Positions 8,712-21,433 of a stretch of DNA of 64,000 nt are shown here, one piece after another (position 1 is the first letter of the stretch; the number at the start of each line of letters is the position of its first letter). This DNA comes from Chromatiales bacterium (GTDB lineage Bacteria; Pseudomonadota; Gammaproteobacteria; JAHELT01): the NCBI GenBank assembly GCA_024644045.1, contig JAHELT010000001.1, forward strand, positions 48,209 to 112,208, given 5' to 3'. A program made the translations under genes and the position numbers. The notes beneath the pieces were generated by a model. It saw only the letters and a program-made list of their open reading frames with translations. It did not search any database and was not told the DNA's origin.

Positions 8712-9695
8712 GTGAGCGAGGGTAGCGGTATCCGGGCAGCCTTCCCCGGTGAGACGAACCGCACCGCGTTGAAACAATCCGGCCGCCTGTCGGCCTCCGA
8801 GAGCCTTGCGCTGCAGGAACGTCTGGCGCGTTACCGCGGGCGCGTGGACGCCGAGCTCGAGCGGTGGCTGCCGGGCGTCGACGAAGAGCCTGTGCGGCTG
8901 CATGAAGCAATGCACTACGCGGTGATGGGAGGCGGCAAGCGCATTCGCCCGGTGCTGATCTACGCGACCGGCGCAGCCCTCGACGTGGACTTGACGAGCC
9001 TCGACGGCCCGGCCGTCGCGGTCGAGTTGATGCACGCCTATTCCCTGGTGCACGACGATTTGCCGGCCATGGACGATGACGATCTGCGCCGCGGCAAGCC
9101 GACCTGCCACAAGCGCTTCGACGAGGCGACCGCGATCCTCGCGGGCGACGCGCTGCAGGCACTGGCCTATCAGGTACTGTCGCAGCACCCGGCGATCTCG
9201 GCGAACCACACCGTGTGTGCGCGCATGATCGCCACGCTGGCGCACGCCAGCGGCTCCGAGGGCATGGCCGGCGGTCAGGCGATAGACCTGGACGCAGTCG
9301 GCAAAGCGCTCGACCTCCAGGCGCTGGAGAACATGCACCGCCGCAAGACCGGTGCGCTGTTTCGCGCCTGCGTCGCATTTGCCGCCTACGCGGGTGGCAA
9401 CTCGAACGACGTCCTGCAGGACCGCCTCGACCGCTACGCCGCGGCCGTCGGCCTGGCGTTCCAGATTGCCGACGACATCCTGGACGTGGTCGGAGACACC
9501 GAGACGCTGGGAAAGGTCTCGGGCGCCGATCAGGTTCGCAACAAGCCCACGTACCCGTCGATCCTGGGCCTCGAGGGTGCCCGGCGCCACGCCCTCGAGA
9601 TGCACGGGCAGGCGCTTCAGGCGCTGCAGGGACTGGGCGCCGAATTCGATATTCTTCGTCAGCTTTCCGCCTACATCGTGCACCGGGAAAGTTAG
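8712..9695 (+). CDS. ispA: (2E,6E)-farnesyl diphosphate synthase / polyprenyl synthetase
   Basis: Both Asp-rich motifs are present (LVHDDLPAMDDDDLRRGKPT and FQIADDILD). It begins 7 nt after xseB. Confidence 0.93.
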   Translation: MSEGSGIRAAFPGETNRTALKQSGRLSASESLALQERLARYRGRVDAELERWLPGVDEEPVRLHEAMHYAVMGGGKRIRPVLIYATGAALDVDLTSLDGPAVAVELMHAYSLVHDDLPAMDDDDLRRGKPTCHKRFDEATAILAGDALQALAYQVLSQHPAISANHTVCARMIATLAHASGSEGMAGGQAIDLDAVGKALDLQALENMHRRKTGALFRACVAFAAYAGGNSNDVLQDRLDRYAAAVGLAFQIADDILDVVGDTETLGKVSGADQVRNKPTYPSILGLEGARRHALEMHGQALQALQGLGAEFDILRQLSAYIVHRES

Positions 9696-13451: not shown

Positions 13452-14575
13452 CGAAATTCCTGGTACAGACGGCGCAGGATCTCCTGCTCCAGCGCGGGAA
13501 GCTTCGACGAGCCCGTGGTGTCGGCAATCGAAATACGCGTCTGTCCCGGCTCCTCCCGGACATACACCTGGTAGTACTGCTCTACCTCGTCGTCGCCGCC
13601 GAACAGCGTAGAGAAAAAACCGCTGTCCTCGTCCGCGGCAGCGGTTTGCGGCATCCTTGCCTGCACGTTCTCCGGCAGCGCGCCCGAGAACAGGACTTCG
13701 TAGCGGAATTCCGTTTTCAACGTCTGCTCGATCTCCAGCCCGATGTCCTCCAGCGCCTCGCCGGTTCTTATCCATACGCGCGGAAAGGTATCGGCGATCA
13801 CCAGGCTCGGGCGGCCGTCCACTTCATCCAGGTACGCGCGGGCCGCCAGTTGCTGAGCCTGTTGCAGCGTCAGCACGCCCCGGGCGATCTGCTCCTTCAC
13901 GCCCAGGTACACGAGCAGGCGCAGCATCATTTCCGTTTCCCGCTCCGCGTCGGGCGGGCGCCTGGCGTAGTAGAAGTCGCCGACCTGGCGGCTGCCGACT
14001 TCTTCGGCGAGCGTCTGCTCCATGCGCCGCTGGGTCAGAAACACGCGCACCCGGGTTTCGCTCCCGTCGATGCGCTCCAGGCGCAGGCGAAAGCGTTCCC
14101 TGGCATCGCTCGAGGCCGTTGAGAACAACTTGGCGACTCCCCCCTGGCTCGCACGCGAATCCGCCACGTCCCGCCATTGCGTCTCGATCAGACCCAGCAG
14201 CGGCTCATCACGCGCTATGGCGAAACCCGACTGGGTGAAGAAATCCTTGAGCGACGGCCAGAGTTCGCGCGCATTTGCGTCCGCTTCCAGCCAGCGCAGA
14301 CGCCCGTCGCGCACCAGGCGCACAGACTCCGGGTCGGGCAGCAGGGTGCTGTGCGTGATTGCGCTCTTGCCGCCCTCCGGCAGGCGCAGCAGCGACTGGC
14401 GCAGGCTGCCGGAAACGTCCGGGGGAACTTCGAGCAGCGCGCGCTCCTCGGCCGAGGGGTAGGCGACCATCGGGTCGTCCCCGCGCGGGCCGACGAGACT
14501 GCAGGCGGCAAGGGCGACGACGAGGCCGTACGCCGTCAGCGCGCGGCTCAAAGGAATCAACGGCGCTAGCCTCAA
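13448..14575 (-). CDS. bamC: Outer membrane protein assembly factor BamC (NlpB lipoprotein)
   Basis: Lipobox LVVALAAC-S and NlpB/DapX family similarity. It lies immediately downstream of dapA with a 4-nt overlap, the classical dapA-bamC operon. Confidence 0.85.
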
Positions 14576-15447
14576 AGCGCGCCCGCGGTACGCAACGCGG
14601 CACGCACGTTATCGTGCGCCGCATCTGAAAGCCAGGTCAGCGGCAGGCGGATGCCGGTTTCGATCAGCCCCATCTGCTCGAGCGCCCATTTGACCGGGAT
14701 TGGATTGGATTCGATGAACAGCTCGCGGTGTAACGGATCGAGTACGTCGTTTATTTCCGTCGCCGCCGCACGATCGCCGGCCAGCGCCGCATTGCACATC
14801 TCGTGCATCAGCCGGGGCGCCACGTTGGCCGTCACCGAGATCACACCGTGCCCGCCGGCCAGCATCACTTCCTTGCCGCTGTGATCTTCGCCTGAATAGA
14901 CCGCGAAATCGTCGTCGCAGCGCCCGATAATGTCGCTGGCGCGCTGCACGTTGCCGGTGGCCTCCTTGATACCGATGATGTTCGGCACCGCCGAAAGCCG
15001 CACGACCGTGTCCGGCAGCATGTCGCAGGCGGTGCGCCCGGGTACGTTGTAGAGAATCTGGTCTATGGCCACCGCTTCGGCTACCGCCTTGAAGTGCAGA
15101 TACAGGCCCTCCTGGGTCGGCTTGTTGTAGTACGGCGTAACCAGCAGGCAGGCATCGACCCCGGCGTCCTTGGCGTTCTGCGTCAGCTCGATGGCTTCGC
15201 TGGTCGAATTGGCCCCGGTGCCGCCGATGACCGGAATTCGACCGGCCACCAGATCGACGATGCGTTTGATGACGTAGCTGTGCTCCGGGATGTCCAGGGT
15301 CGCCGACTCTCCGGTGGTGCCGACCGCAACGATCGCGTCGGTTCCATTTTCGATGTGGAAGTCGACCAGCCGCGCCAGGGAATCCTCATCCAGTGCCCCG
15401 TCCGCGTACATGGGGGTTACCATTGCAACCATGCTACCTTTGAACAT
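14572..15447 (-). CDS. dapA: 4-hydroxy-tetrahydrodipicolinate synthase
   Basis: 291-aa product [13 protein letters not shown]...GTTGES.TL... with the DHDPS signature and a conserved Lys region. Confidence 0.96.
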
Positions 15448-15517
15448 TGGCCTTACTCATCGTGGGATGGCGGTAAGTGCGTAGTATAGGTTGCCGGGCA
15501 GTCGCCCGCCACGCGCA

Positions 15518-16009
15518 ATGGCGGCGCCCGACCCGTCCATCACCGACGTGCAACGCCTGGGAGCAACGACCGTGACCAGCGTTAAACCGGGCGCCAAGGT
15601 GCCCGACTTCACCGCGGCCGCCACCGGCGGGCGCAAGATTAAACTTTCGCAATTGAAGGGCAGCAATGTCGTGTTCTACTTCTACCCCAGGGACAACACG
15701 CCGGGTTGCGCGACCGAGGGGCAGGACTTCCGCGATCGTGCGGAAGTCTTGAGCGAAGCCAACACCGTCATCTTCGGCATTTCCCGCGTCAGCCTCAAAA
15801 GCTTCGACCTGGTGTCCGACCCGGACGAGGCGCTGTGCGAGTTGTTCGACGTGATCAAGATGAAAAACATGTACGCCACGAAGGTGCGCGGCATCGAACG
15901 CAGCACGTTTCTGATCGACGCCGGGGGCGTGTTGCGCAACGAATGGCGGAAAGTCAAAGTGAACGGCCACACCGACGAAGCGCTGGCCGCCGCGGCGAAG
16001 CTGCTGTAG
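15518..16009 (+). CDS. bcp: Thioredoxin-dependent peroxiredoxin Bcp
   Basis: Aligns to E. coli Bcp (KVPDFTAAATGG..VVFYFYPRDNTPGCATEGQDF). The exact start is uncertain; it is either the internal ATG at 15518 or a downstream GTG. Confidence 0.85.
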   Translation: MAAPDPSITDVQRLGATTVTSVKPGAKVPDFTAAATGGRKIKLSQLKGSNVVFYFYPRDNTPGCATEGQDFRDRAEVLSEANTVIFGISRVSLKSFDLVSDPDEALCELFDVIKMKNMYATKVRGIERSTFLIDAGGVLRNEWRKVKVNGHTDEALAAAAKLL

Positions 16010-16022
16010 CGCCCGCCCGCGT

Positions 16023-16478
16023 ATGGCTATCGAGCTCTCTGTGCGCCCTTACGCCGACGGCGATTACCAGGCACTCGTGGCGCTGTGGTCCGGGTGCGGG
16101 CTGCTGCGCCCGTGGAACGACCCCCGGCTCGACATCGAGCGCTGCCTCAGCACGCCGTCGAGCGAGATACTGGTCGCCGATCATCCCGCGCGCGAGGGGC
16201 TCGCCGCCAGCGTCATGCTGGGCAGTGACGGGCATCGCGGGTGGCTTTACTACCTGGCCGTGGCCCCCGATCTACGCCGCAGCGGGCATGGGCGGGAAAT
16301 CGTGCGCGCCGCAGAGCGGTGGCTGGAAAAGCACGGCGTCGGCAAGGTGATGCTCATGCTGCGCCCCGATAACGAGGCGATCATGGGTTTCTACCGTGCG
16401 GCCGGCTACGAGATAGAAGAGCGAGTCCTGATGGCCCACTGGCTGCAGCCGAAGGCGGAAGAGGTGCCACCCGACTAG
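16023..16478 (+). CDS. GNAT family N-acetyltransferase
   Basis: 151-aa product with acetyl-CoA binding motif region (LAVAPDLRRSGHGREIV). Confidence 0.8.
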   Translation: MAIELSVRPYADGDYQALVALWSGCGLLRPWNDPRLDIERCLSTPSSEILVADHPAREGLAASVMLGSDGHRGWLYYLAVAPDLRRSGHGREIVRAAERWLEKHGVGKVMLMLRPDNEAIMGFYRAAGYEIEERVLMAHWLQPKAEEVPPD

Positions 16479-16479
16479 G

Positions 16480-16800
16480 GAAGCTCTGAACAAGTCATCC
16501 ATGACTTGTCAGAGAAACGCAAAGCGAAAAGTGTGATTTTCGCTTGCGTTTCGAAATCAACAACTTGAAAAGTCGTCGATTTCGTCGGCACGTCCCTGTG
16601 CCGAAGGGAACCTCAGCTTTGCAGAGGTTCCCTAGGGCCTGTTAACGCAATGCGAGTACCCATCGTTGGCTCTCCAATGAGGCCAGGCAAGGCGCGCGGG
16701 GCAGTTTGGTCATCCAAACAAGGCCTGCTCAACGCCGCAGGGCCTCATTGGAGAGTCAACCCGCAGGGACGGGGCCGTTTTTTCCCCGCCGGACGCGCTG
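16480..16800. other. Low-GC (~47% vs ~67% flanks), hairpin-dense convergent intergenic region; candidate small RNA or remnant repetitive element
   Basis: At least five stem-loops are packed into ~320 bp. These include gaacaagtcat/atgacttgtcag, gaaacgcaaagcgaaaa-N6-ttttcgcttgcgtttc, cggcac-N6-gtgccg, gggaacctc-N9-gaggttccc, and a 15-17-bp inverted repeat ggctctccaatgaggcc (16667) / ggcctcattggagagtc (16741). The region ends in GGGGCCG-TTTTTT (16768-16785). Confidence 0.3.
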
Positions 16801-16802
16801 AC

Positions 16803-17879
<1,077 letters not shown>

Positions 17880-20900: not shown

Positions 20901-21433
20901 CGCACACCCGCCGGGTTCAGCACCGGGATCTCGGCGGCCATGAAAGCGTATTCGCTCTGGTGTGGAAGAGTCGAGGATTTGCACGCATGGTCGTCGCCGG
21001 CAATGACCAGCACCCCGCCGTGCTTCGAACTGCCCGCGGCGTTCCCGTGCTTGAGCACGTCGCCGCTGCGGTCCACGCCCGGCCCCTTGCCGTACCACAT
21101 GGCGAACACGCCGTCGTAGCGGGCGCCGGCGAACAGGTTGACCTGCTGGCTGCCCCACACTGCGGTCGCGCCCAGGTCCTCGTTGATCGCCGGCTGGAAA
21201 CGCACGTGATGCTCGTCGAGGTACCGCTGGGCGCGCCACAGGGCCAGGTCCAGTCCGCCCAGCGGCGAGCCGCGGTAGCCGGAGACGAACCCCGCCGTGT
21301 TCAGGCCGGCGGCCAGATCGCGCTGGCGCTGCAGCATCGGCAGACGCACCAGCGCCTGGATACCGTTCAGAAACACGCGTCCGCGGGCGCGTGTGTACTT
21401 GTCGTCAAGCGTTACTTCGGCGAGAGCAGCCAT
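17987..21433 (-). CDS. Indolepyruvate/2-oxoacid:ferredoxin oxidoreductase family protein (fused alpha-beta, ~1150 aa)
   Basis: 1148-aa product [14 protein letters not shown]...[15 protein letters not shown]... carries a ThDP-binding domain and a Cys cluster ([13 protein letters not shown]). This is the typical proteobacterial fused IOR. Confidence 0.85.

Follow-up and report, generated by a model that had tools for sequence, protein, structure and literature searches.

What occupies the 324-bp gap (16479-16802) between two convergent genes of a Chromatiales bacterium, a GNAT acetyltransferase gene on the plus strand and a leucine dehydrogenase-type gene (ldh) on the minus strand? The DNA analysed is a stretch of 64,000 nucleotides (contig JAHELT010000001.1, positions 48,209 to 112,208), called the window below, and all coordinates are those of the window. 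A Pfam scan shows that the gap is flanked by housekeeping genes. An initial interpretation from the letters of the DNA (the sequence-only reading) had proposed a novel structured small RNA (sRNA) or, as a second candidate, a foreign insertion remnant resembling either a MITE (miniature inverted-repeat transposable element) or a repetitive extragenic palindrome (REP). The feature is real and is most likely an object of a known kind: two stacked MITE insertions, one of them a truncated member of a large family. We consider it probable that the entire gap is a pile-up of these two elements, units A and B, in a former spacer of 5-16 nucleotides (nt) between the convergent genes. The remaining interest lies in a conserved hairpin module of unit B, which is folded strand-specifically and is common to many different transposon ends.

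The convergent arrangement described by the sequence-only reading is confirmed by the open reading frames (ORFs), their translations and Pfam. Related loci were identified by searching genomes and metagenomes with the Ldh protein. No close strain of the window organism was among the matches, and exact-protein look-ups with the window Ldh, GNAT and P0001 proteins returned no record. Three relatives retain the Ldh/GNAT(/DapA) arrangement with Ldh and GNAT convergent. The stop codons of these two genes are 16 nt apart in L001 (a gammaproteobacterial metagenome-assembled genome, Ldh 82% identical), 5 nt apart in L081 (Ldh 82% identical) and 10 nt apart in L082 (Ldh 73% identical). Because these junctions measure only 5-16 nt, the approximately 324 bp are specific to the lineage of the window. 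Such tight junctions also argue against a conserved sRNA gene at this locus. The GNAT orthologues of the relatives have their C-terminus at or near ...MAHWL*, and the tail of the window Ldh, ...LRKSA*, is native, with ...LRKIA* as its counterpart in L082. One alignment (A3) had hinted that the 3' end of ldh was derived from the element; this was rejected since the ...LRKxA* tail is native in L082.

The features of the locus, with the evidence for each, are as follows.

16023-16478, plus strand: GNAT acetyltransferase gene (ORF, translation, Pfam PF00583 with E 1.2e-13).
16476-16477, no strand: TA, the left-hand one of the two making up unit A's putative target-site duplication (from the sequence cccgaC-TA-GGGAAGCTCTG ... 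CAGAGGTTCCC-TA-GGGCCTG).
16478-16632, no strand: unit A, a 155-bp orphan MITE-like element of about 48% GC (inverted repeats, folds, GC).
16633-16634, no strand: TA at the junction of the two units, belonging both to A on its left and to B on its right (right duplication copy of A; TA flanking the terminal repeat of B).
16635-16664, plus strand: left terminal inverted repeat of unit B (GGGCCTGTTAACG, 16635-16647) and subterminal region (pattern match, alignments).
16665-16760, plus strand: hairpin module of unit B, with outer stem P1 at 16665-16684 / 16741-16760 (inverted repeat, covariance model).
16760-16768, plus strand: mini-hairpin CCC-GCA-GGG after the module (family alignments; the loop among copies is GAA, GCA, TTC, TGC or TCC).
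16770-16795, plus strand: stump of a second, inverted module, CGGGGCCG-TTTTTT-CCCCGCCGGAC (alignment A3), over which homology to the full-length elements fades.
16803-17879, minus strand: leucine dehydrogenase gene of the Glu/Leu/Phe/Val-dehydrogenase family (ORF, translation, Pfam scan).

Unit B, the right half of the gap, belongs to a dispersed family of mobile elements. The first lead was provided by a sensitive blastn search against plasmids, in which 16632-16780 gave weak matches to unannotated spots on Azotobacter chroococcum plasmids; a search of a phage collection with the gap gave no match. These spots are elements of approximately 270 bp with terminal inverted repeats GGGYCTGTTGACGTTT and a TA on each side. 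Further copies are carried by a plasmid of Pseudomonas aeruginosa, by a Halomonas replicon and by an IMG/VR contig; another Azotobacter plasmid has a degenerate remnant. At its left end, unit B aligns with the Azotobacter, Pseudomonas and Halomonas copies and with five metagenome contigs (L163, L267, L236, L237 and L264) whose elements, at about 270 bp, are the closest full-length relatives among the matches listed. From TA-GGGCCTGTTAACG the window copy can be aligned through the long hairpin to ...AACCCGCAGGGACGGGGCC. The family pattern TAGGGYCTGTTRACG is matched exactly at 16633-16647, and the P1 stem sequence GTTGGCTCTCCAATGAGG is common to the window copy and its closest relatives (L163, L267 and others). 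Enclosed by P1 in the window module are two boxes, CCAGGCAAGGCG and CAACGCCGCAGGG, together with the apical hairpin GTTTGG/CCAAAC. The module's covariance model (R1) identifies 16669-16756 on the plus strand with 63.8 bits and E 3.6e-14, its sole significant match in the window. A weak partial match within a long coding region, at 21036-21090 on the minus strand (13 bits, E 0.46), is almost certainly due to chance.

The window copy is truncated. Homology extends from the left end to about 16790 (GGGGCCGTTTTTTCCCC...); this stretch has a GC content of 64% and corresponds to the left 155 bp or so of a MITE of approximately 270 bp. Compared with the full-length relatives, the remaining 110 bp or so and the right terminal repeat are missing. 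The covariance model finds two inverted modules in full-length elements and one in the window. Full-length relatives carry both terminal repeats and are flanked by TA on both sides, while unit B shows the left repeat and the left TA; unit A has both of its repeats. BLAST and pattern searches revealed no right terminal repeat of unit B anywhere in the window. Plasmids queried with full elements of type 2 and of the window type returned almost nothing. The family is widely dispersed, with at least 120 metagenome loci in addition to plasmid and GTDB-genome copies. These lie in differing contexts at unrelated loci, and no element occupies the orthologous junction of L001, L081 or L082.

The terminal repeat of the B family, GGGYCTGTTRACG, is that of IS5-family insertion sequences (ISs) of approximately 860 bp. 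In L131 (7982-8845) the same terminal repeat bounds an IS of about 865 bp with a 249-amino-acid (aa) ORF. This ORF contains DUF4096 and DDE_Tnp_1 and matches NF033580 ('IS5 family transposase') with 277 bits. On the Azotobacter plasmid pAcX50f (L268), repeats GGGGCTGTTGACGTTT / GGGCCTGTTGACGATT surround an annotated IS5-family transposase, 77% identical to that of L131. This plasmid bears both the IS and a full-length copy of the MITE (L084). L131 and L268, with their GGGKCTGTTGACG repeats, are autonomous partners for B-type elements. A related case is found in L132 (5501 to about 5795, an IMG/VR contig), where an element of about 300 bp has the same GGGTCTGTTGACG left end, the first 60 or so codons of an IS5-type transposase and a degenerate right end. 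It is an internal-deletion derivative and illustrates the origin of such MITEs from the IS. Immediately after the IS of L131 there is an ORF (8800-9339) with a staphylococcal-nuclease domain (SNase, PF00565); its predicted start overlaps the right end of the IS and the true start is probably downstream.

Unit A, the left half, is bounded by 11-bp terminal inverted repeats, GGGAAGCTCTG at 16478-16488 and CAGAGGTTCCC at 16622-16632, complementary at 10 of the 11 positions. A TA is present on both sides (16476-16477 and 16633-16634), as in a target-site duplication. The left TA is part of the CTAG at 16475-16478 that borders the unit and that includes the GNAT stop codon (TAG, 16476-16478). Unit A ends in a sequence similar to the TAGGGAAACACTGATC-type (type-4) terminal repeats of L155, L166 and L176. 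Its interior consists of five abutting stem-loops detected by an inverted-repeat search (16484-16514, 16514-16552, 16552-16584, 16585-16604 and 16605-16633). Two pairs of short direct matches between 16477-16527 and 16605-16655, AGGGAAGCTC/AGGGAACCTC and AACGCAAAGCGA/AACGCAATGCGA, are each spaced by exactly 128 nt. The former reflects the hairpin 16605-16633, in which a left-end-like repeat is folded onto the right terminal repeat of unit A; the latter may be chance.

The layout of unit A is that expected if a second element targeting TA/CTAG had entered the CTAG at the left junction of unit B and duplicated the TA. The order of events would be that unit B inserted first, at the TA beside the GNAT stop codon, that unit A then inserted into the CTAG at the left edge of B, duplicating the TA, and that a deletion removed the right part of B. 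IS5-family DDE transposases with genes at other places in the genome would have mobilised both units in trans. Unit B would now be immobile, while unit A may still be mobilisable. Stacking of the same kind is seen in L083 (324-1503, Azotobacter chroococcum HR1 plasmid), where an IS630-family transposase gene abuts the left TA of a B-type copy (...gtgtcataacac-TA-GGGCCTGTTGACG); a second TA-targeting element has therefore inserted at the edge of a MITE, as proposed here for A and B.

The composition and folding of the gap can be read in the same terms. The low GC content reported by the sequence-only reading (47%) holds for the left 155-160 bp (48%) and not for the gap as a whole (56%) or its right half (64%); that of the window is 66%. 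At least five stem-loops had been announced and five are indeed present in unit A. The minimum free energy (MFE) of the gap is -167.9 kcal/mol on the plus strand and -170.5 kcal/mol on the minus strand, whereas dinucleotide shuffles give about -110; the z values are -11.1 and -12.5, respectively. The inverted repeat reported around a 55-nt core was recovered at 16665-16684 / 16741-16760 (20 nt, 95% complementary, enclosing 56 nt) and proved to be the module of the B family. The gap is saturated with hairpins because elements of this type are built palindromically, and this is no evidence for an sRNA gene. As a predicted consequence of the insertions, both convergent mRNAs would gain long, highly structured 3' regions.

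Scans for expression signals and known RNAs gave little. No sigma-70-like promoter was detectable at the gap, and a consensus terminator scan called no plus-strand site and one weak minus-strand site compared with 0.8 expected. The terminator-like end of the sequence-only reading, GGGGCCG followed by TTTTTT, does exist (16771-16783), yet no plus-strand terminator is called there and the T-run (16778-16783) is looped in the MFE structure. In full-length relatives the same T-run forms the 5' arm of a long stem and pairs with a downstream A-run. It is, therefore, the relic of a stem and not an evolved terminator. As in the sequence-only reading, no known RNA family was matched: Rfam (6S, tmRNA, RNase P, SRP, riboswitches and others) gave no match in the 64-kb window at gathering score, and only chance-level matches for 16380-16900 at E up to 10. 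Rfam searches with the full-length copies L084, L130 and L034 gave no match to the elements (a lone IMPDH match with E 0.56 lies elsewhere in L034). The absence of a convincing peptide was also borne out. The only ORFs wholly inside the gap encode 20-39 aa, have weak start codons and overlap hairpin stems, and coding is ruled out by the indels and compensatory changes in the family alignments. A reverse-strand ORF running through the B-type element was considered and rejected: its frame is lost (in the Halomonas copy a stop follows after four codons) and the alignments contain indels and compensatory changes.

Some points weigh against the interpretation of the gap as two stacked MITEs. The relatives with an 'empty site' share only 73-82% identity in Ldh, and loss of the DNA there instead of gain here is formally possible though unlikely, since three independent tight junctions speak otherwise. 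Unit B has neither a right terminal repeat nor a right TA and its truncation is inferred rather than observed. BLAST identified no homologue of unit A in plasmids, phages, the window or approximately 1.3 Mb of fetched loci. Unit A is classed as a MITE from its anatomy, less certainly than B, and its 10/11 repeat and two TAs could be fortuitous. The presence/absence support for A is confined to the empty orthologous junction and no partner IS is known for it. The 64-kb window includes no IS5-family transposase. Finally, the orientation of family copies relative to neighbouring genes, as judged from crude home-made gene calls, is 41 sense to 53 antisense for 3' contexts; in the absence of an excess of sense read-through, a simple role as RNA in 3' untranslated regions (UTRs) is not favoured.

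To define the module across the family, metagenomes were scanned with the interior pattern CCAGGCWAGGC-N30-55-AACGMCGCAKGG, which gave at least 120 matches; 111 distinct copies among the matches listed were used in a covariation alignment. In the alignment the module forms a long hairpin of irregular shape: its outer stem (P1) is variable, the boxes are conserved, the second stem (P2) has either Watson-Crick pairs or many tandem G·A pairs, and a further hairpin makes up the apex. P1 is paired at 92.6%. The covariation score is 0.519, compared with 0.144 for shuffles (none of 500 reached 0.519) and at most 0.159 for slid registers. Within P1 there are 158 G·T pairs to 22 A·C, and second, inverted modules read in their own sense give 26 to 11. 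An excess of this kind is beyond the reach of symmetric mutation in duplex DNA, so one specific strand folds, either as RNA or as single-stranded DNA (ssDNA). The conserved boxes, CCAGGCAAGGCG and CAACGCCGCATGG, are unpaired, and two positions inside them (columns 21 and 74 of alignment A2, window positions 16689 and 16736) are coupled: A/C in 84 copies, T/A in 25 and discordant in 2. Both states of this non-isosteric pair are found in several terminal-repeat subfamilies, and the pair might represent a base pair, a triple or a protein contact.

The module is therefore more than a passive palindrome: its stems covary, and G·T is far above A·C across the 111 distinct copies. The sequence-only reading had taken repeat status to exclude covariation. 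The module is indeed repetitive and mobile, yet it shows both strong covariation and a strand-specific excess of G·T. The idea of a structured sequence under selection is thus partly supported: it survives at the level of the family, while that of an sRNA gene belonging to this locus does not.

Terminal repeats of at least ten unrelated kinds surround the same module; the elements are flanked by TA and measure approximately 165, 240 or 270 bp. One group of copies (L241, L192, L209 and L210) shares identical flanks and P1 stem (CCGTGATCGGCGTG) with another (L152, L156, L174 and L184) while the two carry different apical parts, that of the former group being otherwise typical of another terminal-repeat subfamily. 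Interiors have been exchanged between subfamilies, either by recombination at the conserved boxes or by separate movement of the apical part. In elements with two modules, each is 'sense' when read inward from the nearer end. This fits either a structure met by transcripts entering from one or the other flank, or one formed, at each terminus, by the strand that has its 5' end there. For single-module copies (L148-L267), the right-hand gene is on the opposite strand in 35 cases compared with 13, and the left-hand gene shows no bias (18 compared with 21). The possible antisense bias of single-module elements (35 against 18) is too unreliable to interpret; it may reflect an orientation constraint or be an artefact of crude gene calling and related contigs.

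Our best guess is that the module would act in cis, as a structure aiding the persistence or spread of the elements. Transcripts that enter from either side might meet it as a structured barrier or be processed at it; alternatively, it might be a structure on one DNA strand used in transposition. We do not think that it is a trans-acting regulator. A more specific proposal, which we regard as possible although rather doubtful, is that the module represents a widespread structured motif, so far undescribed, that has its own function, a cis-acting device or 'passenger' kept or repeatedly captured by unrelated IS5-type MITE lineages and promoting their transposition or retention. The motif comprises the variable P1, the boxes CCAGGCAAGGCG and CAACGCCGCAUGG, the coupled A/C-U/A position, the tandem G·A-rich P2 and the apical hairpin. 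As candidate mechanisms, ssDNA could fold strand-specifically at each end of the transposon, or an RNA element could act on transcripts from either flank. Literature searches (with sequence strings and with MITE/IS5 keywords) yielded no description of the B family.

Could the gap, or its right-hand module, instead be expressed as a structured non-coding RNA with a role for the host at this site (a trans-acting sRNA or a protein-binding RNA), the mobile elements being merely its means of delivery? The very strong folding is compatible with this, as are the family-wide covariation with its 7:1 ratio of G·T over A·C and a single folding strand, and the conserved unpaired boxes CCAGGCAAGGCG and CAACGCCGCATGG with their tightly coupled pair of positions. 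Since no Rfam family is matched, such an RNA would be new. It is, however, difficult to reconcile with an orthologous site that is empty in relatives, with the scan of the gap, in which no sigma-70-like promoter or canonical terminator was found, with copies at unrelated loci in either orientation and with no sense bias to the upstream gene, and with a window copy that is a truncated half-element. The locus-specific sRNA of the sequence-only reading is set aside on the same grounds, namely three empty junctions, no promoter or canonical terminator and membership of a dispersed repeat family bounded by terminal inverted repeats. Moreover, long covarying hairpins in selfish repeats are an already recognised class and may act as DNA (PMC11109978). 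We consider a host RNA improbable.

A narrower version, that the minus strand of unit A is a Csr/Rsm-type protein-sponge RNA or that it provides an RsmA/CsrA-binding 3' UTR for the ldh mRNA, seems very unlikely. The observations behind it are a GGA in each of two minus-strand loops (GUC-AUGGAU-GAC at 16493-16506 and GCAC-AGGGAC-GUGC at 16588-16601), a weak Rfam alignment to RsmV on the minus strand that is anchored on both (14.9 bits, E 0.05 in a 521-nt search), and two A·C mismatches of the hairpin 16552-16584 that become G·U on this strand. RsmA/CsrA recognises the consensus A/U-CA-NGGA-NG-U/A, which both loops fit. Known Rsm/Csr RNAs, however, include from five to more than twenty GGA motifs, and here two are in loops; GGA triplets are equally numerous on the plus strand. 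The 14.9 bits compare with a gathering score of 100 bits for RsmV, and nothing in the window reaches the gathering threshold. No GacA-box-like TGTAAG-N6-CTTACA occurs near the gap within three mismatches, there is no promoter or terminator, and no homologue was found in the collections searched. An Rsm/Csr sponge was rejected for the two GGA loops, the lack of a GacA box, promoter and terminator, and the low score.

Least probable of all is that the gap is ordinary intergenic DNA, that is, two convergent intrinsic terminators and a spacer or a cluster of palindromes of the REP type or of bacterial interspersed mosaic elements (BIMEs). Spacers between convergent genes are the usual site of both, and the gap has many hairpins and one T-run. 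The terminator scan, self-BLAST, the family alignment and the covariance match nevertheless largely refute this. No GC-rich stem is directly followed by a U-tract, there is no plus-strand terminator, and the single weak minus-strand site is no more than is found in shuffles. The hairpins have sequences unrelated to one another, and the other 63.7 kb contain no second instance of any of them: comparing the gap with the window by self-BLAST gave no further copies, and a search of the window for the terminal repeats and core motif, allowing three mismatches, gave only the known sites and chance matches. In the relatives 5-16 nt lie between the stops, and half of the gap is homologous to a transposable element bounded by terminal inverted repeats. 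Of the foreign insertion remnant suggested at the outset, the MITE has stood and the REP has not.

Comparison with known systems places both units closest to bacterial MITEs derived from IS5. The shared features are a length of 155-270 bp with no ORF (unit A is 155 bp and unit B approximately 155 bp, and neither has coding capacity), terminal inverted repeats (at both ends of unit A and at the left end of unit B) and TA flanks in YTAR/CTAG-like targets. In addition, an autonomous IS5-family IS has a terminal repeat identical to that of B, and both occur on one plasmid. A palindromic interior, an intergenic location and the positioning of one element against another are also in common with these MITEs, which are described as producing stable stem-loop transcripts, clustering and nesting into one another (PMC10969869). 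The differences are that unit B is a half-element lacking its right end and that unit A has no known family or partner IS. Furthermore, MITEs normally have conserved ends and a free interior, whereas the B superfamily combines one conserved interior hairpin with many unrelated, interchangeable ends and shows the wobble tolerance of one strand of RNA or ssDNA.

The 'mobile/repeat sequence candidate' motifs of the Breaker-laboratory GC-IGR surveys, for example MRSC-65-2, are similar in consisting of a long single covarying hairpin in many copies with inconsistent gene orientation, an occasional transposase nearby and the same ambiguity between RNA and DNA. MRSC-65-2 contains UYCCGG repeats in place of the boxes CCAGGCAAGGCG and CAACGCCGCATGG, and the survey also has 250 unpublished or unnamed candidates, among which the B module may be (PMC11109978). 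Covarying hairpins in selfish repeats that possibly act as DNA are thus an already recognised category (PMC11109978, PMC5737381). Integron attC sites likewise have a hairpin related to recombination or transposition that works as one folded DNA strand, with short conserved boxes, extra-helical bases and a variable apex (PMC5737381). They differ in the order of the boxes (RYYYAAC...GTTRRRY instead of GTTGC...GCAAC) and no cassette array or integrase context is found here, while B elements have the terminal repeats and TA duplication typical of DDE transposition. The stem-base boxes, GTTGS...SCAAC in general (GTTGG...TCAAC in the window and GTTGC...GCAAC in most relatives), are not those of attC.

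Correia elements duplicate TA on insertion. Together with ERIC, RUP and SPRITE repeats, these elements (CREE) are palindromic intergenic repeats bounded by terminal inverted repeats, as is the B family. They are co-transcribed with their neighbours into stable hairpins and can be terminators, RNase targets or promoters (PMC10969869). They have no sequence similarity to the B family and are restricted to a genus, unlike the B module, which occurs in Pseudomonas, Azotobacter, Halomonas and many unassigned metagenome contigs. The similarity to Rsm/Csr sponge RNAs (RsmV, RF04320) is limited to the two minus-strand loops of unit A with GGA in its canonical context.

For the annotation of this genome, the result removes one false candidate for an sRNA. 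A compositional anomaly is accounted for by a pile-up of transposons, an insertion event is dated and a CTAG hotspot is located where a gene ends. If the module does have a role in transposition or in the handling of read-through, it would count as a new element acting in cis for IS5-type transposons, and its covariance model would also provide a useful marker for such MITEs in metagenomes.

Some minor observations concern ldh and the neighbouring genes. Among the 80 genome loci fetched for Ldh, two have a copy of the module within about 0.7 kb of ldh. One, L054 (4772-5038, Pseudomonas peli), is a near-symmetrical dimer of inverted modules; the other, L034 (1602-1868, a contig labelled Verrucomicrobia), has the same interior with different, 31-bp terminal repeats, GGAGCCTACAATAGATTGAATCGCCTCTGCG. 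This proximity is probably a coincidence as the family is abundant. To the left of GNAT, the dapA gene (14572-15447, minus strand) precedes a region, 15434-16009, where the longest ORF (15434-15970, minus strand, 178 aa) has no Pfam match. In L082 an AhpC/redoxin gene on the GNAT strand occupies the corresponding place, and the gene between dapA and GNAT in the window is more likely to be the predicted plus-strand ORF at 15491-16009 (172 aa).

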